64,000 nucleotides of DNA from Aestuariibacter sp. (GTDB taxonomy: Bacteria; Pseudomonadota; Gammaproteobacteria; Enterobacterales; Alteromonadaceae). The stretch spans positions 720,027-784,026 of the forward strand of contig CP170457.1 in NCBI GenBank assembly GCA_047947135.1, in the 5' to 3' direction. The notes beneath the pieces are model-generated. The model was not told where the DNA came from and ran no database searches. It saw only the letters and a list, made by a program, of their open reading frames with translations. The position numbers and the translations under genes were made by a program. This document shows positions 13,226 to 62,173 of the stretch, one piece after another. Numbering within the stretch: position 1 is the first letter of the stretch; the number at the start of each line of letters is the position of its first letter.

Positions 13226-13248
13226 CAAAATCACCATGAAACGATTCC

Positions 13249-13578
13249 TTAACCGATATTTTCGTTAATAAAATCTGTTAATTGCGTTTTGGATAATGCA
13301 CCTACTTTGGTGCCAACAACATTTCCATCCTTAAATAACAACAGCGTAGGAATACCACGAATACCGTATTTTGGTGGAGTCTCATTGTTATCATCGACAT
13401 TCATCTTGGCAACTGTTATCTTGCCGTCATACTCTTCGACAATCGCATCCAACAGTGGCGCAATCATTTTACAAGGACCGCACCAAGGTGCCCAAAAATC
13501 AACTAGAACAGGTTTCTCGGCCTTGATTACATCATCTTCAAAAGAACCGTCACTTATTTGGACTATTTTGTCATTCAT
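13249..13578 (-). CDS. trxA: Thioredoxin 1.
   Basis: WCGPCK active site. About 65% identical to E. coli TrxA along the full 109 aa. Confidence 0.95.
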
Positions 13579-13680
13579 TCATTTCTCCATAGATACTGTA
13601 CGTCCCTTCAAGGGGACGAATATTCACACGTATTTATATAGGAACTGTTTTTTAATTCAAGCACTGATATGCTATAAGCT

Positions 13681-14931
13681 ATGCAAACAACACATTTAAC
13701 TGATACACATTTTTCCGAATTAGGGATTCACGCAGATATTTTGGCCGCTTTAAAAGCTGCCAGTTTCGAGCATTGTACCCCTATTCAGGCTTTGAGCTTA
13801 CCCCAATTGCTGCATGGACAAGATATTGCAGGGCAAGCGCAAACAGGCACAGGCAAAACCATGGCCTTCCTGATCGCCACCTTTCATTACTTATTGACGC
13901 ATCCTCAGGAGAATGATGCGCAACCCCGGGCCATTATCATGGCGCCGACACGCGAATTAGCGGTGCAGATCCATAAAGATGCTGAACTTTTGTCCAAAAA
14001 CTGCAACATAAGTCTTGGTTTGATATACGGTGGAGAAGGTTACCAAAGCCAGATGGAAACGCTGCAAAAAGGCGTAGACATCATCATTGGCACCACAGGC
14101 CGCATCATTGATTATTACAAACAAGAGTTATTTAGCCTGCGCCACATTCAGGTCACTGTGCTGGATGAAGCTGATCGCATGTTTGATTTGGGTTTCATCA
14201 AAGACATCCGCTATCTGTTGCGTCGTATGCCTGCTGCCACCGAAAGACTCAGTATGCTGTTTTCAGCGACACTGTCATATCGCGTGCAAGAGCTGGCGTA
14301 TGAGCACATGGACAATCCAGTACATGTGCAGGTTGATGCTGAGCAGAAAACCGCAAAACGTATTGTAGAAGAACTCTTCTATCCTTCCGACCATGACAAA
14401 ATGTTATTATTACTCACCCTGATGGAAGAAGAATGGCCAGAAAAAGCCATTGTTTTTGCCAATACCAAACACAGCTGTGAGAATGTTTTTGATTGGTTAG
14501 TCGCAGATGGACACCGAGTGGGCTTATTAAGTGGCGACGTGCCACAGAAAAAGCGTTTGCGCATTCTCGATGATTTTGACAAAGGCGTTCTGGATGTACT
14601 GGTTGCCACCGACGTAGCAGCACGTGGACTGCACATCGATAAGGTCTCTCACGTATTTAATTACGATTTGCCTGATGATGCCGAAGATTATGTGCATCGT
14701 ATCGGACGTACTGGGCGAGCAGGGAAAAGCGGCCATGCCATCAGCTTTGCCTGTGAAAAGTATGCGCTTAATCTGCCAGCCATTGAAAGTTACATCAGTC
14801 ACTCTATTCCGGTAACGGATTATTTTCATGATGCGCTGTTAACCGATGTTACACCGCCGAGGAGAACCCATCGCAAGCGTGCGCACCGGGATAAACGTCA
14901 ACATCAAAAAAGGCAGAGTAACCGCAGTTGA
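13681..14931 (+). CDS. rhlB: ATP-dependent RNA helicase RhlB (DEAD-box).
   Basis: AQTGTGKT (Walker A), PTRELA, DEAD ([10 protein letters not shown]), [13 protein letters not shown], and an Arg-rich C-terminal tail. Divergent from trxA, as in E. coli. Confidence 0.9.
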
Positions 14932-28332: not shown

Positions 28333-28680
28333 ATGAAAGTACTGGTAATTGATGACAGCCCAGTCACACGAAAAATGGTGCAACGCATGATTTCTTCGGT
28401 GTATCCCAATGCCACTTTTGCCGAAGCCAAAGATGGTGATGAGGCGCTGGACGTCATCGATGAGCAGTGCTATGACCTTTACACCATTGATTACAATATG
28501 CCGGGCGCCAATGGCGAAATCGTCGCAATTGCAGCAAAAACCAAATCCCCCCGCGCCAAAATATGCATGCTGACCTCTGACAAGGGCGATTCCACTCGAC
28601 GTCTAGCGGAGCGCATAGGCGTTAAGTACCTGACTAAGCCCAATTTTGAACAGGACTTACTGGCGTTTATCAAATCCTGA
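28333..28680 (+). CDS. Stand-alone CheY-like receiver domain protein.
   Basis: MKVLVIDDSPVTRKMV...LYTIDYNMPGANG...MLTSDKG...YLTKP has all the receiver signature residues. No output domain. Confidence 0.8.
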   Translation: MKVLVIDDSPVTRKMVQRMISSVYPNATFAEAKDGDEALDVIDEQCYDLYTIDYNMPGANGEIVAIAAKTKSPRAKICMLTSDKGDSTRRLAERIGVKYLTKPNFEQDLLAFIKS

Positions 28681-30302: not shown

Positions 30303-30953
30303 ATGTCAGCGCTGCTCAACGATTTATTTAGTTTTCCAATTGTAATTTATGCTTTCCCAATGCTGCTTTGCATCATGTTCTGGGTCATTACTTTAATTGG
30401 GTTTGTCGATATTGAAGTCTTTGATTTTAGTACCGACAGCGAATTATCTGAAAGTGGTGCATCGGATGGAGGTGGTTGGTTACAGTCACTGGGATTGGAT
30501 GGCGTGCCACTTACCGTCGCAATTACGCTGGTTGACACTTATGCCCTGGCATTTACTTATCTTGCCAAAAAATACTTGATGCCACTGTTTGATGGTTTAG
30601 CAAGTGCTATAGCCATTGGCTCAATTACCGCACTTGTCGCTTTGCTCTTGGCTATACCTGTTTCGGCAATCTGCATTAAGCCACTCCGGCGGTTCTTCCA
30701 TACTCATGAAGGAGAGAGGAAGTCAGACTTAATTGGCACAATTTGCACCGTAACAACTGGAAGCGTTAACCAAGGATTTGGTCAAGCTACTGGTGATAAC
30801 GGCATGGTTTTTAGCATTAGAGCACAGGAGCCCAATGAGCTTGCTAAGGGCTCCAGAGTGGTACTAATTGAATACCTTCCCGCAGAAGACACCTATCAAG
30901 TGGTCAGCGAATCAGAGCTTATGGCCATGTCCTCTGAACACACAACGATTTAA
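30303..30953 (+). CDS. yqiJ: NfeD-like inner-membrane protein, YqiJ/DUF1449-like (partner of flotillin).
   Basis: About 4 TM helices, followed by a soluble C-terminal region of roughly 70 aa (DLIGTICTVTTGSVNQGFGQATGDNGMVFSIRAQEPNELAKGSRVVLIEYLPAEDTYQVV). This matches the beta-barrel C-domain of NfeD/YqiJ. It sits 35 nt upstream of a YqiK-type flotillin gene. Confidence 0.65.
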   Translation: MSALLNDLFSFPIVIYAFPMLLCIMFWVITLIGFVDIEVFDFSTDSELSESGASDGGGWLQSLGLDGVPLTVAITLVDTYALAFTYLAKKYLMPLFDGLASAIAIGSITALVALLLAIPVSAICIKPLRRFFHTHEGERKSDLIGTICTVTTGSVNQGFGQATGDNGMVFSIRAQEPNELAKGSRVVLIEYLPAEDTYQVVSESELMAMSSEHTTI

Positions 30954-30988
30954 CTTTCTATATAACTGCAATCCTCAGGAGCACAAAC

Positions 30989-33013
30989 ATGAATGCAGGT
31001 AACAACTGGATGTTTTGGCTGGCGCTGGCTGCCGGTTTATTTTTCTTCGCCATGATCCTCACGCTATTTATGGCTCGGCTTTATCGTAAAGTAGAGCAAG
31101 GAAAAGCGATGATTGTTAACACCATGCGAGCCGAACCTAAAGTTACTTTTACAGGCGCATTGGTCTTGCCGGTATTTCACAAAATGGAAATTATGGACAT
31201 TTCCTTACGCACTATTGAAGTTGACAGAAACGGCTCTGATGGTTTGATTTGTAAAGATAATATTCGAGCCGATATAAAGGTTGGTTTTTTTGTTCGCGTA
31301 AATAAGAACACCGACGATGTTCTCAAGGTAGCTCAAGCTATTGGATGTCAGCGAGCATCCAATATTGAAACACTTGAGGACTTGTTTAGCGCCAAGTTCT
31401 CAGAAGCACTCAAAACCGTTGGTAAGTCTCTCGAATTTGAAGAGTTGTATGCCAAAAGAGATAAGTTTCGCGACCTCATCATCGACAATATCGGTACTGA
31501 CTTAAATGGCTATATTCTTGAAGATGTTGCCATTGATTATCTGGAACAAACTCCTCTTGATAAACTAGATTCCAATAACATCCTGGACTCGCAAGGTATT
31601 CGTAAAATTACCGAGTTGACCGCCCAACAACATATTCAGACCAATGTCTTTCGCCGGGATGAAGAAATGAAGATTAAGGCTAAAGATGTTGAAACCCGAG
31701 AAGCCGTACTGGAACTCGAGCGGCAACAGGCCGAAGCTGAAGCCAAACAATTGAGAGAAATCGAAACAGTAAAAGCGCAAGAAGAAGCAGAAACCGAAAA
31801 AGTAAAATATGAAGAGCACATGAAAGCTGAACAAGCCCGGGTTCAGGCCGCTCAGGAAATCGAAGTACAGGAACAAAATAAACAACGAGAAGTTGAAGTT
31901 GCAGAAAATAACCGTTTACGAGCTGTAGCGATAGAAGAAGAAAACGTGAAAAATGCTAGAGAGCTAGCAAAAATTGAACGTGAAAAAGAAGCAGCCTTGC
32001 AAGCTATTGCCGCTGAAAAATTATTAGAGCATGAGAAACGAGAAATTGCGGAAGTGATTAGCGGCCGTATTGAAGTAGAAAAAAATGTGGCTGAGCGTGA
32101 AGAAGAAATTAATGAGCTCAGAAAAGTGGCAGAAGCAGAACGTTTAAAGAAAGCGCAAATCATCACCGCTGAAGCTCAAGCACAAGAAGCACTCGTCAAA
32201 GATATCAAAGCCGCCGAAGCTGGTGAGCAGGCTGCTACTCACAAAGCCAAAGAAAAAGCCGTATTAGCACAAGCTGATCTGGAAGTGGCTGAACTCAATG
32301 CGCAAGCAAAAGCGAAAGAAGCTTCTGGTTTAGAAGCTCTTGCTGCCGCTGATGGTCTGGCCGAAGCAAAAGTCATGCAGGCAAAAGCCTCTGCATCAGA
32401 GGAACAAGGCATGGCACAAGTTAGAGTGGAAGACGCTAAAGCTGATGTACTGGAGAAAAAAGGACTGGCGGAAGCTGAGGTCGTGGCTAAAAAGGCGGTT
32501 GCTGAAGCTGAGGGCATGACCAAAAAGTTTGAAGCCATGGCGACAATGTCAGATCAACAACGTGCACACGAAGAATTCCGTATGAGGATTGATAATCAGC
32601 ACAAAGAAGCTCTGGAAATGATTTCTGCTAATCGCGATATTGCTGGTGAACAGGCAACCGTATTGGCTGAGGCATTAAAGCAAGCCAAAATTGACATTGT
32701 TGGTGGTGATACCGGATATCTGGACCGCTTTATTAGATCGATCTCAGTTGGAAAAGGCATTGATGGGGCCATTCAACGAAGTGATACGCTCTCTACTGCT
32801 TTTGCAGACCACATGAATGGGGATGCCAGTTTTGTTGAAGACGCAAAATCACTAATCAGTAGCTTTGGTGGTGCAAGCGGCAATGCTAAGGATACAGCCA
32901 TGACTGCACTAATGGCGAAACTTCTTAAAGAAAGTAAAGACAATCCCCACATTCTGGAGATGCTATCTCAAGGGATAAATAGTATTAAAAGCACCCCCAC
33001 AGAAAAACAGTAA
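30989..33013 (+). CDS. yqiK: Flotillin-family SPFH/band-7 protein (YqiK-like).
   Basis: N-terminal membrane anchor (WMFWLALAAGLFFFAMILTLFMA). SPFH domain (residues about 40-230). Then about 350 aa of E/A/K/Q-rich heptad coiled coil (the flotillin domain) and a C-terminal tail. 674 aa. Confidence 0.85.
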   Translation: MNAGNNWMFWLALAAGLFFFAMILTLFMARLYRKVEQGKAMIVNTMRAEPKVTFTGALVLPVFHKMEIMDISLRTIEVDRNGSDGLICKDNIRADIKVGFFVRVNKNTDDVLKVAQAIGCQRASNIETLEDLFSAKFSEALKTVGKSLEFEELYAKRDKFRDLIIDNIGTDLNGYILEDVAIDYLEQTPLDKLDSNNILDSQGIRKITELTAQQHIQTNVFRRDEEMKIKAKDVETREAVLELERQQAEAEAKQLREIETVKAQEEAETEKVKYEEHMKAEQARVQAAQEIEVQEQNKQREVEVAENNRLRAVAIEEENVKNARELAKIEREKEAALQAIAAEKLLEHEKREIAEVISGRIEVEKNVAEREEEINELRKVAEAERLKKAQIITAEAQAQEALVKDIKAAEAGEQAATHKAKEKAVLAQADLEVAELNAQAKAKEASGLEALAAADGLAEAKVMQAKASASEEQGMAQVRVEDAKADVLEKKGLAEAEVVAKKAVAEAEGMTKKFEAMATMSDQQRAHEEFRMRIDNQHKEALEMISANRDIAGEQATVLAEALKQAKIDIVGGDTGYLDRFIRSISVGKGIDGAIQRSDTLSTAFADHMNGDASFVEDAKSLISSFGGASGNAKDTAMTALMAKLLKESKDNPHILEMLSQGINSIKSTPTEKQ

Positions 33014-33028
33014 CCTCTAAGAGAATAG

Positions 33029-33059
33029 GCTGGCATCACCCTGTTACCACGATGCCAGC
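33029..33059 (+). terminator. 9-bp stem hairpin just after the flotillin stop. Possible attenuator or partial terminator ahead of the giant gene.
   Basis: gctggcatc-accctgttaccac-gatgccagc, followed by ttgattc. A second 6-bp hairpin (tacaccCAGACCggtgta) lies about 20 nt further on. Confidence 0.35.
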
Positions 33060-33127
33060 TTGATTCAATACACCCAGACCGGTGTACTGATCATTAAACC
33101 CAGTTAGAGAATGTAGCAAGAGACGTT

Positions 33128-36100
33128 TTGGAGCAAAACATGAGTAACGAATCTGAGATTGATACCGCCGTCGCAGAGGGAGGCGCTTACGAAGTCATTC
33201 GCAGCAGACTAACTGAACAAGCGGATTCTCTAGACAAACAGGTAGAAGTACTAAATCAATCCAGGATCTCTGAATTCGGCCAACCACAAATGGAAATCAC
33301 CAGCCGGGTTAGAGTAAGGACAGAAAACAACTGTATCGCTCGTGACATTGTTCCAGTGGGGAATCTATTACTATTTGGCTACAACGTTTTCATCGGCTTA
33401 AAAAAAGAAACTCAGGTAAATGATGTATTTAGCTTATTTCAGCTCAAATCAGAAGAGGGTGCCATTGGGCTGGTAGAACAAGATCTTAGTAAATCCTTTC
33501 TTAGTGATGCCAAATTCCAAAAAGATTTTAAAGAACTCTACGTTTATTACAAAGAAGCCCGTCTTTTACAGCTGAAGATCCAGAATGATCTCTTATTTGC
33601 GGTTTTCCAGATTGGTAAAAAGCTCACAGATGTACGTGTATTTCAGTGGATGATAACCAAGGAAGAAGAACCCAAGTACATCGACAACCGGGGGGAAAGA
33701 AGCCTTCAAATAATTCCATCACATGATTTTGAATGGCAATCTGTAACCCGTGAGCAACACGTTAATGGAACACATGCCCACGTAAACATCGGTGACAAAG
33801 TTTTTGTAGAAACCATTAAAGGGTCGTTGACAGTAAAAATAGAAAACAATACTGAAGATGGTCTGGGCATTTATAGTGAACCCGTAGATGACAAGAATCA
33901 AAGTTTGTCTGATGCTGATATACAATTCGCCGAAGTAGGCAGTCTGGTATTATTAAAAATCTTGCCGTATAGAGAGCAAGAATACCGATTTTTGGTGTAC
34001 AACACTCGAACCCAAAAAGTAAACAGAATAGATGCCATTGGCTCTGCTTGTATTTCATTGCCAGAAGACCACGGCATAATCTTTCCGGGTGGATACTACT
34101 TACAAAGTGGTGAAACAAAATCTTTCCCCGACGACATTCCCGGATTGCAGTTTAAGAGACAAATTCGCTCTCCCAACGGCGAAGATGTTCTTTATGTTTT
34201 TTATGAACCAGAAACGGGGTTATGCGGTTTGTATTGCTACAACATGATACATAAAGCGCTAAAAAACCCTATTTACGCCCATGGTTACAGTATTTTTAAT
34301 GACGGTACCGCTATTTTCTTTAGCTCGGAAGAGGAACCTACCCGGATTCATCCGATGCAGGTTTGGCAAACACCTTTTTATAGTGACGAATTTGCTGCTA
34401 AACAGCCAACTACAGATTCTTTTTTTAGTCGAATTGGAAATCGAGAACTGGTAAGAGGCATATCAGATATCAGTAGTATCTGTAGACTCATCGAAAATCC
34501 CAGGCCCACCAGACTCCTGTATGAAGATTTAATCAAGTCATGTAAAGATCTGTTCGACTCCTACTATTGGCTTGAAGAAAATGAAGTAGAGGATATCCAT
34601 AAAACTATCTCTGAAATCACAGCAACTTCAGAGCTGGTAATAGATGAATTTGAAAAGGTCTCACAAATTCGTTTAAAGGCAGACGCTCTGTTGAAAACTG
34701 CCAAGGACAAGCAAAAACACATCGTCACTGCTATTAATCCAAAGTCCTGGAAAACCCCGGAACAGTATGTTCAGGCTCTGGTAGCGTTAAGACATCAACG
34801 GGGGCACTTAATATCATTACAGGAACAACGCTACATAGATAAAAAGGTTCTCAAGAGTTTAGAGAGCGAACTGCAAGAGCATTTTGATAAATTGAGTACC
34901 ACAACAGTCGCTTTCCTGGCTAATGACGACTCATTGGCACCCTATCGCACTAAAATTGAAGAGTTACAAAAGGCAATTAATAAGATCGAAGTTGTAGTGG
35001 AAATAGCGCCGCTGGTTGAAGAGTTAGATTCCCTTTCTCATGGTCTGGATGTCGTTACAGAAATATTGAATGGTTTAGAAGTTGAAGACGCCACGGTACG
35101 AACGAAAATCATAGATGATATATCCACTATTTACGGCCAATTAAATCAAATTAAGGCCCTTGCCAGAAACCGTAGAAAGCAATTAGGTAGTGGTGAAGCT
35201 AGTGCGGAATTCGCAGCTCAATTCAGACTTTTCTCGCAAAGTATCAATAATGCATTAGCCCAGGTAGATACGCCTGACAAGGCTGATCAGGAATTATCCC
35301 GACTTATGATTCAACTGGAAGAACTGGAATCTAAATTCAGTGAATATGACCAGTTTCTTGACGAGATTCTCGCGAAAAGAGAAGAGTTGCACAGCGCGTT
35401 TGAAGAGCGCCGACAAACTTTGTTGGAAGAAAGACAGCGACGCAGTCAAAATTTGTTTACGGCGGCAGAACGAACCCTGAAAGGTGTGAATCGCAGGGCA
35501 TCTACTTTTAAATCAGAAGACGACCTGAATAGCTATTTTGCTTCCGATCCCATGATCATGAAGTTAACAGAGCTCAGTGCTAATCTGCGAGAGTACGATG
35601 ACCAGGTGAAAGCAGATGATGTAGAAGCTCAACTAAAAGCCGCGAAGGAAACGGCCATTAGAGCACTCCGAGATAAACAGGATATTTACGAAGACGGGGG
35701 GAATGTAATCAAACTGGGAGCTCACAAATTTAGTGTTAACTCTCAGGTCTTGGATTTAACCCTCATTCCCAAAAATGACGGATTATACCGGCATCTCATT
35801 GGAACCGATTTTTATGAGAAGCTACAAAATAAAGCGTTGCTCGAATTACAGCCCTATTGGCAACAGGCTTTGGTGTCGGAGAACAACGAAGTTAGTCGCT
35901 GCGAGTATCTAGCATCTTTGATTATCAAAGATGCGGAACAACAAGCAAATGATCTGTCATTATCTAAACTGTATAAAGCAATAGACTCACAACAAGAATT
36001 ATCCGATTTAGTGGATTCTTATATCAGTGACAGGTATCAGGAAGGTTACGAAAAAGGAATTCACGACAACGACACCTGCCACTTACTGTCAGCGTTAATC

Positions 36101-38257
36101 CCTATCCATAAACGGGCAGGTTTGTTACGATTTAGTCCCAAATCCAGAGCATTAGCAATGCTGTTTTGGTCCTTTTCAAGCACTTCCGATAAGCAACGTA
36201 CCATTTGGCAAAGTCAGGCTCTGAGTGCAAAATCTTTGCTGGCTATTCTCGATAGCAACCAAGGCTTCAACAGTTTAACTGAAGAGCTTTCGACGCGTAT
36301 AAATCGCTTCAAAGAGACATTTGGACTGCCATTCTCGACTTCAGATATCACAAGCGCCGTTGCTTACTTAGGGCAGGAACTCGCTAGTGGCAAACTGAGT
36401 TTTGTGTTCAGTGACAGTGCCGCGAAAATCGAAAAAGCATTCGGTCAAAAGCTAAAACTGGATAATGAGTGGCAAAATTTTCAAAAAACGATCTCTGTTT
36501 GCACTAGCTTAGATTCTACAGAGCAGTCACAAGACATTAGGGCGACATCGTTAAGAGATGTCTGGCATCTCACTTTTGTCTGGCTGGATGCATTCGTTCA
36601 ATCGAATATTGAACAATTATCCAATCGCCGCCACTACATTCCAGAAGTTGCAGCCTTTCTCATCTGCCAACACACAATTGAGCGCCGCAATAGTGATGTC
36701 GACTTATTAGTTGAGGTGCCCAACCTATTAAGCGAACACAGAAATATTGAAGATGGCAAGCTCACTATTGCTCTGGATGAGTTTAATGAAAGAATGCAAT
36801 ATTTTCATGATATACATTTGCCCAATTTTAATCGCTATCACCAGTTACGTCGCGACATTATGGAAACAAGTCGCAGAGAGTTACAACTGTCTCAGTTTGT
36901 GGCGAAACCGCTGAGCTCTTTCGTCAGAAACAAGTTGATCAACGAAGTTTATTTCCCATTGATAGGGGCCAACCTGGCGAAACAAATGGGGACTGTCGGG
37001 GAAGACAAAAGAACAGACCTAATGGGTTTATTGCTACTTATATCGCCACCGGGTTACGGTAAAACAACTCTGATGGAATATATCGCTAATCGATTGGGGC
37101 TGATCTTTATGAAAATAAACTGTCCGTCTCTGGGTCATGAAGTGACCTCTATCGATCCATCAACGGCTCCAAATGCAACCGCCAGACAAGAATTAGAAAA
37201 ATTAAATCTTGGTTTGGAGATGGGTAATAACGTCATGTTGTATCTGGATGATATTCAACATACTCACCCGGAATTTTTACAAAAGTTTATTTCACTATGT
37301 GATGGCACCAGAAGAATAGACGGAGTGTGGGAAGGCCAGAGCAAAACCTATGATATGCGCGGTAAGAAGTTCTGCGTTGTTATGGCTGGAAACCCATACA
37401 CTGAATCTGGCGATGTCTTCAAAGTTCCAGACATGCTGGCTAACAGAGCCGATATTTATAATCTGGGTGATGTGCTAAATGGCAAAGAATCTCAATTTGC
37501 TATGAGCTATATAGAAAATGCCCTGACTTCCAATGCTGTGTTGGCACCTTTAGCACTTCGCGACATGCAGGATGTTTACAAGTTTATCGACATGGCCAAC
37601 GGCAAAGATGTCGCGAGTACGGATTTAAAGTACGAGTATAGCGGCGCAGAGATAAACGAAATCTGTACCGTGCTAAAACATTTGTTTGTTATTCAAGATG
37701 TTATTTTAAAGGTCAATCTTGAATACATTAAATCAGCAGCAACGGCTGAAGATTATAGACAAGAACCGGCGTTCAAGTTGCAAGGAAGCTATCGTAATAT
37801 GAATAAGATGGCGGAAAAGGTCTCCGCCGTGATGAACCACAATGAGCTCATGCAATTGATTGAAGATCACTACATTGGAGAAGCGCAAACACTAACCTCT
37901 GGTGCAGAGGAAAACCTCTTAAAACTCGCTATTATGAGAGGCACCATGAACGAACAACAACAATCCAGATGGGCCCATATATGTCAGGCGTTTGAGTCAA
38001 AACATTCTTTACAAATAGAAGGTGATCCAACACACCAAGCCGTCAAACAACTTAGTCAAATGGCACACACATTAACTGAAATCAGAGACGATATGTATCA
38101 ATCAGATACAGGCGATCTGATAAAGCCTATAAACCGAGTAGCCGCAGCAATGTATCTGTTGAGCAAGGTTTGGCGGGGTGATGAAAAATCGAATTACAAA
38201 GAACAACTCTCACAGTTGGACGACAAGATAAAAAGCGAAACTACGGATGACAGCTAA
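33128..38257 (+). CDS. Giant (1709 aa) soluble protein of unknown function. It has an N-terminal globular region, a long central coiled coil, and a C-terminal MoxR/dynein-type AAA+ (AAA_5-like) ATPase module.
   Basis: Single uninterrupted ORF with no TM segments. Walker A ISPPGYGKTT is at nt about 37041-37068. Walker B VMLYLDDIQH is at about 37235-37260. The sensor-1/Arg region CVVMAGNPYTESGDVFKVPDMLANRADIY is at about 37380-37460. Its order and spacing match MoxR, McrB and dynein AAA_5 domains. Residues about 480-900 are heptad-rich (LQEQRYIDKKVLKSLESELQEHFDKL...). No other domain recognised by eye. Confidence 0.8.
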   Translation: MEQNMSNESEIDTAVAEGGAYEVIRSRLTEQADSLDKQVEVLNQSRISEFGQPQMEITSRVRVRTENNCIARDIVPVGNLLLFGYNVFIGLKKETQVNDVFSLFQLKSEEGAIGLVEQDLSKSFLSDAKFQKDFKELYVYYKEARLLQLKIQNDLLFAVFQIGKKLTDVRVFQWMITKEEEPKYIDNRGERSLQIIPSHDFEWQSVTREQHVNGTHAHVNIGDKVFVETIKGSLTVKIENNTEDGLGIYSEPVDDKNQSLSDADIQFAEVGSLVLLKILPYREQEYRFLVYNTRTQKVNRIDAIGSACISLPEDHGIIFPGGYYLQSGETKSFPDDIPGLQFKRQIRSPNGEDVLYVFYEPETGLCGLYCYNMIHKALKNPIYAHGYSIFNDGTAIFFSSEEEPTRIHPMQVWQTPFYSDEFAAKQPTTDSFFSRIGNRELVRGISDISSICRLIENPRPTRLLYEDLIKSCKDLFDSYYWLEENEVEDIHKTISEITATSELVIDEFEKVSQIRLKADALLKTAKDKQKHIVTAINPKSWKTPEQYVQALVALRHQRGHLISLQEQRYIDKKVLKSLESELQEHFDKLSTTTVAFLANDDSLAPYRTKIEELQKAINKIEVVVEIAPLVEELDSLSHGLDVVTEILNGLEVEDATVRTKIIDDISTIYGQLNQIKALARNRRKQLGSGEASAEFAAQFRLFSQSINNALAQVDTPDKADQELSRLMIQLEELESKFSEYDQFLDEILAKREELHSAFEERRQTLLEERQRRSQNLFTAAERTLKGVNRRASTFKSEDDLNSYFASDPMIMKLTELSANLREYDDQVKADDVEAQLKAAKETAIRALRDKQDIYEDGGNVIKLGAHKFSVNSQVLDLTLIPKNDGLYRHLIGTDFYEKLQNKALLELQPYWQQALVSENNEVSRCEYLASLIIKDAEQQANDLSLSKLYKAIDSQQELSDLVDSYISDRYQEGYEKGIHDNDTCHLLSALIPIHKRAGLLRFSPKSRALAMLFWSFSSTSDKQRTIWQSQALSAKSLLAILDSNQGFNSLTEELSTRINRFKETFGLPFSTSDITSAVAYLGQELASGKLSFVFSDSAAKIEKAFGQKLKLDNEWQNFQKTISVCTSLDSTEQSQDIRATSLRDVWHLTFVWLDAFVQSNIEQLSNRRHYIPEVAAFLICQHTIERRNSDVDLLVEVPNLLSEHRNIEDGKLTIALDEFNERMQYFHDIHLPNFNRYHQLRRDIMETSRRELQLSQFVAKPLSSFVRNKLINEVYFPLIGANLAKQMGTVGEDKRTDLMGLLLLISPPGYGKTTLMEYIANRLGLIFMKINCPSLGHEVTSIDPSTAPNATARQELEKLNLGLEMGNNVMLYLDDIQHTHPEFLQKFISLCDGTRRIDGVWEGQSKTYDMRGKKFCVVMAGNPYTESGDVFKVPDMLANRADIYNLGDVLNGKESQFAMSYIENALTSNAVLAPLALRDMQDVYKFIDMANGKDVASTDLKYEYSGAEINEICTVLKHLFVIQDVILKVNLEYIKSAATAEDYRQEPAFKLQGSYRNMNKMAEKVSAVMNHNELMQLIEDHYIGEAQTLTSGAEENLLKLAIMRGTMNEQQQSRWAHICQAFESKHSLQIEGDPTHQAVKQLSQMAHTLTEIRDDMYQSDTGDLIKPINRVAAAMYLLSKVWRGDEKSNYKEQLSQLDDKIKSETTDDS

Positions 38258-38345: not shown

Positions 38346-41300
38346 CTATGGCTCTCTTTCTTCTTTTGTCGGTGCGATGAGTGGGAGTTCAATATTGCAC
38401 TGAAATCCTTTATTTGGTGCGCTTTCCAGACGAATTTTCCCACCCAGAATTTGTGTGACGTAATTGTAAACCAAATGAAGACCCAGACCTGATCCTCCGA
38501 CACCGAGCTTGGTTGTGAAAAACGGGTCAAACGCCTTCTTTTTCACCTCATCTGTCATGCCAACGCCATCGTCGGAGTAGCAAATCACTAGCAGATTATT
38601 ACTGATTTTTGCATCAATTGAGACGGTGCCCTGAGTTTTTTCAACAAATCCATGAATGATAGAATTCTTGATAAGATTTGTGAAAACCTGAAACAAGGAA
38701 CCTGGATAGCTATCCAGAACAATCCCTTGCGGGCAATTGATTTTAAGTTGGTGTCCCTCATTGGCATACAATGAATGTAACGCGTGTTTAATATCTTCCA
38801 ATAGCGTTTCCAGATCAAATTCTCGGCGCTGTTCACTGGTTTGATCTACTGCGACCTGCTTGAAACTTGCCATTAAGGTGAATGCTCTTTCCAGGCTATT
38901 TAGAATAATTTTGTTTGACGTTCGTGCTTTCTCCAGATGACTATGCAGCTCACTGCGTTTTAGGCGATTTTCATTTACTTTCTTTTCCAGTGAGCAGCAA
39001 TCATCATTTAATGCTGTTGCCGCAGTTAGTGCAATGCCCATTGGGGTATTGATCTCGTGAGATACCCCCGCAACAAGCCCCCCTAATGACGCCATTTTCT
39101 CCTGCTCAATAAAGTCTTCCTGCGCCTTTCTTAATGCCAGTGTGCGCTCTTCTACCTGGGTTTCCAGCTCCTGGGCTCTCGCTTCGATCCAATGAGTACG
39201 GATTCGGAACCCCAAATAGGTGAGTGAAATCGCCAGTATGCTACACAGCGCTATAAACCAGTGTGTCTGCCAATAAGCAGCCTCAACAACAACGTTAAAA
39301 GTTAAATCCTTGCCACTCCAATGACCGGCTCTATTTGTCCCCTGCACAGTAAAGGCATAAGTACCAGGCCACAAGTTGCTGTAACTGGCGACTCGTCTCG
39401 ATGCATCCACCTCGACCCAATCATTGTCAAAACCTTTCAGCTTGTAACGATATCTGTTTTTTTCAGGTGCCGATAAGTCCAATGCCGCAAACTCAATCGT
39501 AAAGCTTCGTTGTTCTGGCTGTATGGTTAACCCGGATTTTCTGAGCATCCCGGCATTAACTGAAACACCATCAACACGCAGCTCCGTCGCCACCAATGAC
39601 GGCTGGTAATCCCAAAAGGAATAACCATCAGGATCGATAATCAGCAACCCCTTACTGCCACCAAACAACAGTCGTCCATCAGGCGATTTTGTATAAGACC
39701 GGAACCAGTTCGTCCCAAATTCTATGCCATCGGCTTTTTGTAGTGGAGTCATTACCTTGCTGGCGGGATCGTAAATATAATCCGGCGTCCAAATTCTACC
39801 CATCGCGTCTTCAAGCAGGTTAGCTCCCATCGGTCTGCCACCAAATCCCGCATGTTGACTGTGATTTTGAAGTTGAACCTTGTCAGGTGAGGTGAAATTT
39901 ACTAGGTGAAGTCCTGCCGTTGTGTCTAACCAAAGTCGCCCAGCACTATCATAAAGCATGCCGACAATACTGGTTGTTTGTAATGATTCCCCATATTCGT
40001 TCGCCCCTTTAATTTGTAGCAAATTCTGACTGTCAGGCGGAACAACATACAAACCCGATGCGCCTGTGGCAACCAGCAGTCGACCATCACCATCTTCATA
40101 AAGCGCATTGATCCAATCCTGCATAAGATCACCATTTGCTAGCGTATAAGTGGCGAACTCCCCAGTTTTGTCATCCCAGTAGAATAGACCCGCGTTTGTA
40201 CCAATCCAAAGACCACCTTTGACCGAAGGGTAAAGAGCCCGAACATTCCCTTTGGGAAGACCATGTTGCTGTCCATACAGAAAGAATTGTTGTTTTTGTT
40301 TGTCAAACCGGTATAGCTGCCCTGGGTTCACACCCACCCAAATATCACCCGATGTCAGTTCGGTCATCGCAGTAATCCAACCAGCATGCAATTTACCGGG
40401 TACCCCAGTTTGAGGATAGTGGCCACCAATAACACCTACGTCTGGGTCGACTATATCGATGCCTCCACCACGTGTTCCGACCCAAATTAAGCCATTTGAC
40501 AAAGCCAATATACTGCTGACATTTGGCTCAGTCAGGCCGTTGTCATTTATCAAACTGAAACGAAACGATTGGAGCCACTCGACTTTGCTTAGCAAGCGTT
40601 GCAGTCCACCTCCATAGCCTCCTATCCAGACGACGCCTGAGCGATCTTTTAACAGTGTTCGAATATCGTTATTGGCCAGACTAAAACTATCTGATGGATC
40701 ATGAATAACACGCGACAGCCAGTTGCCACTTTTCTCATCAATCCTGTCGATTCCGCCAAATCGCGCGGCCCATATTTCGTTATCATTTAACTGAAAGATA
40801 TCGTAAACGGTACTGGACTTGAGAGCTTCGGGCTGATTAGGTAAAGCTGGCTGCATGTGATGGTTTAGGTGGTCATACAGCCACACCCCCGACTCGTTAG
40901 TACCTATCCATATGCGCCCATCATTGGCTTCGAACAGGCTTCTAATGTACAGAGTATTATGTGCTCCATTCGCCATCTGAATGGGTTGAAAATGGTCATC
41001 CTGTGCTGAATATTGTGCCAGCCCTGCCTTTGTACCTACCCAAAGGTTCCCTTGTGAGTCGCGCAAAAGTGCTCTTATGCCACTATGGGGAATGCCATCA
41101 GCCGTGGAATAGTGTTTAATAATATTGCCCTGCGTTGTTGCACGATAAATACCGGAATTGGTCGACAGCCAAACATCATCGTTGAAGCCAGGCAGGACTT
41201 GCGAAACACTGGATAGGTCAGGAAGGTCAAGTAAGGTTTTTTGGTCGAACAGGCGAGTAAATCTTTCGCTGTCCGGATGATAAATCGATACGCCCCCGGG

Positions 41301-41726
41301 CTCAGTAGACAGCCACAATGTGCCATCTTCAAAAACATTTATATCACGAACAAAGTTGCCTCCAAGGCTGGTATTATCCAATGGATCGTGTCTGAACAGT
41401 TTAAATCGATAGCCATCATGGCGAACAACGCCAGCCGCTGTCGCTATCCACAAGTATCCATCAGCGTCTTGCGCAAGGTCAGTTACAACATTGTCTGGAA
41501 TATCCGCAGTGTTACCAATGCTCTCGAACTGAATCTGCCCAATAAGGGGTGCTGAGTACACAAGCAGAAATAAGAAAATAAAGGCGATTACAGTAATCCA
41601 TCCCTTATTTTCAATAGATAACTCAACATCAGCACTGCCGTGCATTATAGATTCCGCATTTTCAATCGCCACTGCTAAATCATAGGTATCGTTGCACTGA
41701 GCGTCAATGAGAGACTGCGTAACCAA
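38346..41726 (-). CDS. Membrane sensor histidine kinase with a periplasmic double beta-propeller (two-component regulator propeller repeats) and Y_Y_Y domain. No receiver domain.
   Basis: Repeated WIAT/WVGT/WIGT propeller blades over about 700 aa. Y_Y_Y region YRYKLKGFDNDWVEV. TM helix WFIALCSILAISLTYLGF. HisKA H-box SHEINTP, then HATPase_c (N, G1 DDGVGM, G2 GLGL). It ends without REC. The start may be 41645 rather than 41726. Confidence 0.8.
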   Translation of the reverse strand: MVTQSLIDAQCNDTYDLAVAIENAESIMHGSADVELSIENKGWITVIAFIFLFLLVYSAPLIGQIQFESIGNTADIPDNVVTDLAQDADGYLWIATAAGVVRHDGYRFKLFRHDPLDNTSLGGNFVRDINVFEDGTLWLSTEPGGVSIYHPDSERFTRLFDQKTLLDLPDLSSVSQVLPGFNDDVWLSTNSGIYRATTQGNIIKHYSTADGIPHSGIRALLRDSQGNLWVGTKAGLAQYSAQDDHFQPIQMANGAHNTLYIRSLFEANDGRIWIGTNESGVWLYDHLNHHMQPALPNQPEALKSSTVYDIFQLNDNEIWAARFGGIDRIDEKSGNWLSRVIHDPSDSFSLANNDIRTLLKDRSGVVWIGGYGGGLQRLLSKVEWLQSFRFSLINDNGLTEPNVSSILALSNGLIWVGTRGGGIDIVDPDVGVIGGHYPQTGVPGKLHAGWITAMTELTSGDIWVGVNPGQLYRFDKQKQQFFLYGQQHGLPKGNVRALYPSVKGGLWIGTNAGLFYWDDKTGEFATYTLANGDLMQDWINALYEDGDGRLLVATGASGLYVVPPDSQNLLQIKGANEYGESLQTTSIVGMLYDSAGRLWLDTTAGLHLVNFTSPDKVQLQNHSQHAGFGGRPMGANLLEDAMGRIWTPDYIYDPASKVMTPLQKADGIEFGTNWFRSYTKSPDGRLLFGGSKGLLIIDPDGYSFWDYQPSLVATELRVDGVSVNAGMLRKSGLTIQPEQRSFTIEFAALDLSAPEKNRYRYKLKGFDNDWVEVDASRRVASYSNLWPGTYAFTVQGTNRAGHWSGKDLTFNVVVEAAYWQTHWFIALCSILAISLTYLGFRIRTHWIEARAQELETQVEERTLALRKAQEDFIEQEKMASLGGLVAGVSHEINTPMGIALTAATALNDDCCSLEKKVNENRLKRSELHSHLEKARTSNKIILNSLERAFTLMASFKQVAVDQTSEQRREFDLETLLEDIKHALHSLYANEGHQLKINCPQGIVLDSYPGSLFQVFTNLIKNSIIHGFVEKTQGTVSIDAKISNNLLVICYSDDGVGMTDEVKKKAFDPFFTTKLGVGGSGLGLHLVYNYVTQILGGKIRLESAPNKGFQCNIELPLIAPTKEEREP

Positions 41727-61262: not shown

Positions 61263-62132
61263 TCAAGTTTGACCCGTTGTTTGCTTAAACCAATCATTTA
61301 TAAACTCAATACACTTTATCAGGATTGGTGGTAAATGTTTGCGATTTGGGTACAACGCATACAAATTCAGTTTCGGGCGCTCAAAGTCTGGTAGTATCTC
61401 CTGCAGTTTTCCCATGCTAATCCACTCATCGGCTATAAAACCCGGAAGGAATCCTATCCCCCGTCCAGCCACAATTATATCCCTCATAAATAAAGTATTA
61501 TTCACTTTTAGCGACCCTTTAATCCTCACACCGCCAGCCACTGGCCATTCGTTTCCCCCCTTAAAATAGCTATATACAAAACAATTGTGGTTTTGTAGAT
61601 CCTGAGGTGTCTCAATATTCGGATACTGATTAAGATAATCAGGGGATGCACAGATCCGATACTGAAAAGACTTGAGCGGTTTTCCGACATAGCCAGAATC
61701 AAATATTCGACTACTTGCCCGAAACCCTAAGTCGAAACCGTGCTCAATTAAGTCTAAATTTTCATCTCCAAGATGAATGTCCAGTTCGATATCGGGGTAT
61801 GCGGCCATAAAATCAGCAAAAACCGGTCCCAATTCTGCTAATCCCAAGGCCATGGGCAAATTTATACGTAGTTTTCCCTGCAAAATATTTTGAGCTTGCT
61901 GCACAAATGCTTCAGCATCATCAAGTTGCAATAATACTTCACGACATCGCAGTAAGTAGCCTTTACCAATGGGAGTCAATTGAACTCGCCTTGTAGAGCG
62001 ATGCAACAAGCGAGTACCAATATCTTCTTCCAGTTTTTGGATTTCTTTACTGACCATGGATGAAGTAGCGTTCACTTCATCAGCGACAGCGGTAAAGCTG
62101 CCTAATTCAGACAAACGAACAAATAGCTTCAT
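61263..62132 (-). CDS. LysR-family transcriptional regulator.
   Basis: MKLFVRLSELGSFTAVADEVNATSSMVSKEIQKLEEDIGTRLLHRSTRRVQLTPIG is the LysR HTH. C-terminal substrate-binding domain. Divergent from a GST gene. Confidence 0.9.
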   Translation of the reverse strand: MKLFVRLSELGSFTAVADEVNATSSMVSKEIQKLEEDIGTRLLHRSTRRVQLTPIGKGYLLRCREVLLQLDDAEAFVQQAQNILQGKLRINLPMALGLAELGPVFADFMAAYPDIELDIHLGDENLDLIEHGFDLGFRASSRIFDSGYVGKPLKSFQYRICASPDYLNQYPNIETPQDLQNHNCFVYSYFKGGNEWPVAGGVRIKGSLKVNNTLFMRDIIVAGRGIGFLPGFIADEWISMGKLQEILPDFERPKLNLYALYPNRKHLPPILIKCIEFINDWFKQTTGQT

Positions 62133-62173
62133 GGCGCGCAATTTATTCACATACCCTCCCAACTACTTCCATT

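Follow-up and report, generated by a model that had tools for sequence, protein, structure and literature searches.

Within a 64-kb stretch of the genome of Aestuariibacter sp. (contig CP170457.1, positions 720,027 to 784,026; henceforth the window), three genes follow one another on the + strand, encoding a small YqiJ-like membrane protein (30303..30953), a flotillin (30989..33013) and a giant AAA+ protein (33140..38257). An earlier note on this DNA had read the three co-directional open reading frames (ORFs) as a candidate system: a protein like YqiJ, a flotillin like YqiK, and a giant without membrane helices whose ATPase module lies towards the C terminus; the ORFs were recovered on the same strand and at the same coordinates, and the domain reading proved broadly right. 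We consider it very probable that the locus represents, in Aestuariibacter (Alteromonadaceae), a widespread and conserved three-gene core, in which the genes for a YqiJ-like protein and a YqiK-type flotillin precede that for a DUF3686 AAA+ giant. Judged by sequence, the trio is orthologous to PA3730/PA3729/PA3728 of Pseudomonas aeruginosa, that is BacC/BacD/BacE, the flotillin among them being PaFlo3. The system had been taken to be undescribed, and this part of the claim falls: the operon, including a form without PspA, is described in the sections of Ravi et al., 2024 drawn on here (PMC11237479), and reverse-transcription PCR in P. aeruginosa PA14 found bacC-bacD-bacE to be co-transcribed (PMC10948618).

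The three gene products

The giant had been described as lacking transmembrane (TM) helices, and indeed a hydropathy scan found no TM segment in it. Its longest ORF runs from a TTG at 33128 to 38257 and gives the 1709 aa that had been reported. The start is most likely the ATG at 33140, 12 nt downstream of the TTG, because a GGAG ribosome-binding site lies 6 nt 5' of this ATG and the 100% identical NCBI protein, from an Aestuariibacter sp. metagenome-assembled genome (MAG), is 1705 aa long. A giant of 1705 aa is therefore likelier, and with it a second gap of 126 nt instead of 114 nt; the first gap, 35 nt between the small-protein gene and the flotillin gene, is as had been reported.

The giant has Pfam matches to DUF3686, DUF7902 and AAA/AAA_5 and consists of a beta-propeller (DUF3686), a coiled coil including DUF7902, a helical middle, a AAA+ module and a helical tail, in this order. 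Fold searches with structure models also speak for the identities assigned to the parts. The N-terminal DUF3686 domain (33230..34567 on the + strand; residues 35-480, E 5.5e-199) was modelled by AlphaFold2 within residues 1-530 at a predicted local distance difference test (pLDDT) score of 86: a helical hairpin is followed by a beta-rich domain, which is beta-propeller-like (residues ~52-410 of the model), and then by a helical bundle. DUF7902 (34928..35182, + strand; PF25472, residues 601-685, E 2.5e-28) lies inside a long helical/coiled-coil region (~480-900), and the fraction of E/K/Q/R/A/L across residues 501-900 is 0.48-0.57. The AAA+ core (37031..37402, + strand), which is matched around residues 1300-1425 by the Pfam models AAA, AAA_5 and AAA_22, holds a Walker A (GYGKT), a Walker B (LYLDD; 37235-37249 on the + strand, residues 1366-1370 counted from the ATG at 33140), a sensor-1 Asn (AGNP) and a conserved Arg (in LANRAD). 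All of these motifs are invariant in the family, which, as far as motifs can tell, argues for an active enzyme. The family comprises 1357 clusters at 50% identity (E <= 1e-3; representative search query, residues 1-1200), and even relatives at 28% identity have the same architecture.

The second gene (30989..33013, + strand, 674 aa) is, by its profile match to E. coli YqiK, a YqiK-type flotillin. It starts with a membrane anchor (residues 6-32 in the hydropathy scan, with basic residues after it), continues with an SPFH/band-7 domain and a ~340-aa coiled coil rich in E, A and K, and ends in a conserved C-terminal region. E, A and K make up 51% of residues 221-560, and both the anchor and the long E/A/K-rich coiled coil that had been proposed thus bear scrutiny. 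The family profile aligned to E. coli YqiK with an hhalign probability of 99.9% (E 3.5e-33), and phmmer matched residues 39-391 of the window flotillin to the human flotillin-1 chains 9bq2/9l3g with E 0.002. As a single sequence the window flotillin had no Pfam match and gave nothing usable in NCBIfam or PADLOC; among 21 family members, four are matched by Band_7 (best E 1e-7) and two by Flot. The family profile found no match among PDB sequences.

The product of the first gene (30303..30953, + strand, 216 aa) resembles YqiJ/YuaF-type, that is NfeD-like, inner-membrane proteins, on the strength of a profile match to E. coli YqiJ. Two broad hydrophobic blocks and a weaker one in the hydropathy scan can be read as three to four TM segments, where four had been proposed and the literature counts three for the family; a soluble beta-rich domain forms the C-terminal part. 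The family profile aligned to E. coli YqiJ over TM2-TM3 and the C-terminal domain (hhalign 88.6%, E 2.7e-6), Pfam YqiJ_N matches four of 19 family members (best E 5e-4), and the Hymenobacter orthologue is annotated as DUF1449. The window protein taken singly had no Pfam match and nothing usable in NCBIfam or PADLOC, and the family profile had no match among PDB sequences. We regard it as a probable divergent YqiJ/NfeD-like protein, the weakest of the three identifications. Both the giant and the flotillin would face the cytoplasm: the former lacks TM segments, and in the latter basic residues come after the only anchor, which is N-terminal.

Linkage, spacing and surroundings of the trio

We surveyed 80 genome loci with relatives of the giant at 50-67% identity, mostly from Gammaproteobacteria and one from Myxococcota; five of them were cut too short to judge flotillin linkage, leaving 75 evaluable loci. 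In 74 of these 75 the gene immediately upstream of the giant gene, on the same strand, encodes a flotillin, and a YqiJ-like gene precedes the flotillin gene in 71 of the 80. The trio recurs in Myxococcota as well. More distant relatives, at 28-31% identity, keep the pair upstream in four of five cases (hmmsearch E 1e-13 to 1e-182), the fifth standing alone, and annotated records hold the same trio in Streptomyces, Hymenobacter, Deinococcus and the Pseudomonas megaplasmid pQBR103. The earlier note had proposed a single three-gene system, and its giant is indeed found with the flotillin and NfeD-type genes and not usually away from them. It is thus strongly supported that the three genes form one strongly conserved unit and that their adjacency is not incidental. 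E. coli yqiJ-yqiK lacks a giant gene and has sibD/ibsD after yqiK, which marks the giant as an add-on to the flotillin pair. Apparently the giant needs the flotillin pair while the pair can do without the giant, and the giant appears not to need PspA.

Further partners surround the trio in many of the 80 loci. A pair of genes for DUF2170 (CesT/Tir-like) and PspA_IM30 proteins lies upstream in 49, and on the same strand downstream are found a rhomboid protease (28 loci), a PLDc_2 protein of the phospholipase D (PLD) type (22 loci) or a Zn-ribbon protein (16 loci). Homologues of DUF2170, PspA, PLD, rhomboid or Zn-ribbon proteins are absent from the 64-kb window, and the DUF2170-PspA pair is absent from all nine Alteromonadaceae-type loci. 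The window copy is the published 'abbreviated', PspA-less short form and not the full bac/PspA operon; such abbreviated operons are said to be widespread in the sections of Ravi et al. that treat them (PMC11237479), and PLD is the sole downstream partner named there. An example of a rhomboid intramembrane protease gene after the giant gene is 13247-13819 of locus L009, and two loci have a gene for an M90 peptidase downstream of the giant, likewise on the same strand. On the megaplasmid pQBR103 of P. fluorescens SBW25 (L091, 86419-103317) the trio stands head-to-tail with the gene of a rhomboid protein and with yjf-like polyamine genes (DUF2491, DUF350, DUF1190 and glutathionylspermidine synthase), so that two PspA-associated operon classes are merged on one megaplasmid.

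The 126-nt spacer that separates the flotillin gene from the giant gene (33014..33139, + strand) contains a G+C-rich hairpin with a 10-bp stem at 33028-33060. The fold has -38.6 kcal/mol and z -4.2, and none of 200 shuffled sequences was as stable; a scan of 33014-33139 found no + strand terminator, and there is no terminator-like T-run. The earlier claim of a hairpin without a strong terminator in this gap is thereby upheld. Across loci L001-L079 the spacer measures 45-908 nt (median 138) and the two genes never overlap, and 39% of the relatives' spacers fold with z < -2 against shuffled controls. As a site of partial attenuation or of processing, the hairpin may keep the ATPase scarce relative to the scaffold. 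The structured spacer is not mentioned in the literature covered. As a separate matter, a GGA-containing hairpin at the giant ribosome-binding site, together with the RsmA-repressed PA14_16190, which is up in an rsmA mutant (PMC8855297), raised the idea of control by CsrA/RsmA. As a general feature of the giant this idea was rejected, as GGA sits in a hairpin loop at only eight of 75 giant starts, fewer than for the other two genes.

The genes on either side of the trio vary, even within Alteromonadaceae, which suggests that the trio moves as a unit, a self-contained cassette. In the window it lies, as had been reported, between an upstream glutathione-reductase-type (gor) oxidoreductase gene and a convergent gene for a large hybrid-type, propeller-type Reg_prop/Y_Y_Y histidine kinase (38346-41726); synteny with gor and the kinase is absent in relatives. 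Upstream of gor there is also a gene for a stand-alone response-regulator receiver (28333-28680), and neither it nor the histidine kinase has a conserved link to the trio among relatives. No tRNA lies within 20-50 kb, and no defence, integrase, restriction-modification or toxin gene was seen near the trio in the window, in agreement with the earlier note.

That note had also judged the giant gene to be richer in A+T than its flanks. The giant gene does have a G+C content (GC) of 0.416 against a window mean of 0.461, with flanks at 0.45-0.48 and not the 0.47-0.52 that had been estimated; the flotillin gene has 0.435 and the other long ORFs 0.42-0.51. Among tabulated ORFs of at least 250 aa, GC at third codon positions (GC3) is lowest in the flotillin gene (0.359), second lowest in 61263-62162 (0.383) and third lowest in the giant gene (0.407). 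The AT shift is real but modest. Low GC3, together with surroundings that are different in each related genome, would suit a cassette that is now and then transferred laterally, although no mobility gene lies nearby. Relatives occur in only 13 of 72,556 plasmid records, mostly chromids or megaplasmids, and in none of 2.9 million viral contigs.

A candidate remodeller of flotillin scaffolds

We think it moderately probable that the best overall explanation is a copy of the bac core acting as an envelope-stress remodelling module. The obligate linkage to the flotillin pair, the frequent linkage to PspA and the shared cytoplasmic location together suggest an ATP-driven factor that assembles or remodels the scaffold of flotillin and PspA. 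The mechanism that we propose for the trio as a whole is plausible but tentative. The flotillin would oligomerise on the cytoplasmic face of the inner membrane through its one N-terminal anchor, like the SPFH cages that have been solved, and the YqiJ-like protein would bind this assembly by its C-terminal OB-type domain, as other NfeD partners do. The soluble giant would dock on the scaffold via its beta-propeller and long coiled coil, oligomerise by its AAA+ module, and use ATP to assemble, remodel or dismantle the flotillin lattice, together with PspA/ESCRT-III polymers where these are encoded, during envelope stress. Inferred here are the physical contacts, the oligomeric state, the substrate and the direction in which remodelling proceeds.

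Several points weigh against this interpretation. Binding of the giant to flotillin, YqiJ or PspA, and its hydrolysis of ATP, are postulates. Two loci have a full-length giant that stands apart: in a Methyloprofundus MAG (L013, the one exception among the 75 evaluable loci) the flotillin and YqiJ genes are missing despite 8 kb of upstream DNA, and in GCA_031454105.1 (L083) neither adjoins the giant despite enough flanking DNA. A stable hairpin separates the flotillin and giant genes. The Walker B of the giant reads LDD in place of the usual DE, with an invariant Asp at the position of the usual catalytic Glu, and its ATP turnover could be slow or switch-like. Deletion of PaFlo3, the P. aeruginosa flotillin, lowered biofilm by ~20% and had no other phenotype (PMC13086221). 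Finally, on a medium-confidence model, the AAA+ module could be analogous to MoxR-type maturation chaperones instead of acting in Vps4-type disassembly.

A stronger form of the remodelling interpretation is possible, and we hold it to be rather unlikely: the three-gene core would be an autonomous, PspA-independent membrane-remodelling machine, with the beta-propeller/coiled-coil AAA+ motor docked on a cytoplasmic flotillin cage to drive ATP-dependent assembly, disassembly or cargo exchange. If true, flotillins would have, in bacteria, their own counterpart of Vps4-ESCRT-III or FtsH-HflKC, the giant would be the first known enzyme with a flotillin scaffold as its target, and the ever-present and often structured spacer would set a low motor-to-scaffold ratio.

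The MoxR analogy can be extended: instead of remodelling the scaffold, the giant would be a maturation chaperone that works from the flotillin platform and inserts or matures a specific membrane complex or cofactor-bearing client, as MoxR, CbbQ and NorQ do. In its favour, AAA_5 is the sole Pfam AAA model that covers the whole core and passes its cut-off (32.1 bits against 22; residues 1302-1425, profile positions 2-125 of 139), and some homologues are named 'MoxR-like ATPase' by the Joint Genome Institute. MoxR systems normally have a VWA-domain partner, however, and none lies beside the trio in the window or among the conserved neighbours in relatives; moreover, the AlphaFold2 model of the AAA+/C-terminal part is of medium quality (pLDDT only 68). 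We therefore consider this explanation unlikely.

Lower still in probability, and in our view very unlikely, is the defence role that had been raised for these genes. In an anti-phage or conflict system the flotillin and YqiJ would sense membrane damage, the giant would transduce the signal, and an effector, PLD in the long form, would kill or arrest the cell. PA3728-PA3732 were induced in all phage-infected samples (PMC12041424), the PLDc_2 gene follows the giant gene on the same strand in 22 loci, and the GC and GC3 of the trio below its neighbours, the unconserved flanks and the existence of megaplasmid copies would all suit such a role. However, induction by phage is the defining behaviour of a phage-shock stress response, and the PspA, CesT/Tir chaperone, rhomboid and polyamine partners point to envelope homeostasis. 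PADLOC-DB 2.0 yielded no significant match for the giant (best IetA, E 1e-4, over the P-loop only, with no stretch passing singly) and nothing for the other two proteins. The absence of viral copies, of defence or mobility genes and tRNA nearby, and of any effector-like gene with the window copy speaks against defence as well.

The suggestion that the giant is a DNA repair ATPase that adjoins flotillin genes for unrelated reasons is hardly credible: it comes from database names only ('DNA repair ATPase' at NCBI, 'ATPase involved in DNA repair' in the Pfam description of DUF3686), whereas Pfam and NCBIfam scans found no DNA-binding, nuclease or SMC/RecN-type domain, the ATPase is of the AAA+ type and not an ABC/SMC head, a literature search on DUF3686 found no mention of it, every conserved neighbour is a membrane or envelope protein, and linkage to the flotillin in 74 of 75 loci and in five phyla cannot be incidental. 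The name is unsupported, misleading and widely propagated.

We thus return to remodelling of a flotillin scaffold under envelope stress as the interpretation that we favour. Bacterial flotillin assemblies are not known to be worked on by any ATP-driven factor, and here a giant ATPase is tied to the flotillin/NfeD pair across at least five phyla, in an operon that in Pseudomonas reacts to infection by phage and has effects on biofilm and virulence. For these reasons the giant is a good experimental entry point. The main value of the present analysis lies in correction: the locus is a PspA-less copy of a published system, and the 'DNA repair ATPase' name misleads.

Comparison with known systems

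The flotillin and its partner have homologues, in the same order, in the two-gene operons of an SPFH2 and an NfeD-like protein known as yqiJ-yqiK in E. coli and yuaF-floT in B. subtilis. Hinderhofer et al., 2009 described SPFH-NfeD loci as two-gene units only (PMC2636767). E. coli yqiJ-yqiK has no third gene, and the window proteins are too divergent for the Pfam models Band_7, Flot and YqiJ to match them singly. As functional analogies only, HflK/HflC-FtsH pairs an SPFH cage with a AAA+ machine, and in Vps4-ESCRT-III a AAA+ ATPase disassembles polymers of the ESCRT-III/PspA family at the membrane. The giant differs from both FtsH and Vps4: it is soluble, it carries a beta-propeller and a coiled coil and neither a protease domain nor an MIT domain, and its homology to them is limited to the AAA+ core.

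The closest match is the bac operon of P. aeruginosa (bacABCDEF, PA3732-PA3727; PA14_16140-16200), in which BacC-BacD-BacE have the same order, strand and domain architecture as the trio. Macé et al., 2008 gave PA3729-PA3732 the name 'bac' cluster (PMC2587700), and Wallart et al., 2024 defined bac as six co-transcribed genes, bacA-F, by adding PA14_16190, the giant, and PA14_16200 (PMC10948618). In the P. paraeruginosa locus of our survey (L074) the order is DUF2170, PspA_IM30, a 213-aa protein, a 688-aa protein, the giant and PLDc_2, and the protein sizes agree with those published for PA3732-PA3729; compared with this locus, the window giant is 51% identical, the flotillin matches with E 2e-181 and the small protein with E 3e-35. 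The bac operon differs in having BacA (DUF2170, CesT/Tir-like), BacB (PspA) and BacF (PLD-like), none of which is encoded in the 64-kb window. Regulation may differ too. BacB-F were co-induced 6- to 13-fold in a bacA mutant, and a sigma-54 promoter was proposed (PMC10948618); 5' of the first gene of the trio a TTGCA is present and no properly spaced GG element, so that there is no good match to the sigma-54 consensus by eye (no formal scan was made).

Ravi et al. (mSystems 2024; preprint 2020) recognised, by comparative genomics, PspA-associated operons of a band-7/flotillin protein, a YqiJ/YuaF protein and a novel AAA+ protein and, in the sections drawn on here, proposed a role for them in membrane dynamics (PMC11237479). 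Set against the operons described in those sections, the window trio shows no architectural difference. The possibility that the protein belongs to an already characterised family, which the earlier note had named as a threat to its idea, has thus come true for description and not for mechanism. We conclude that the locus is a new copy, in its short form, of a known and described operon family whose biochemistry is not characterised. To what these sections of Ravi et al. contain, our survey adds the linkage of giant and flotillin in 74 of 75 loci, the spacer that never gives way to overlap, and the rhomboid (28 loci) and Zn-ribbon (16 loci) genes that follow the trio on the same strand.

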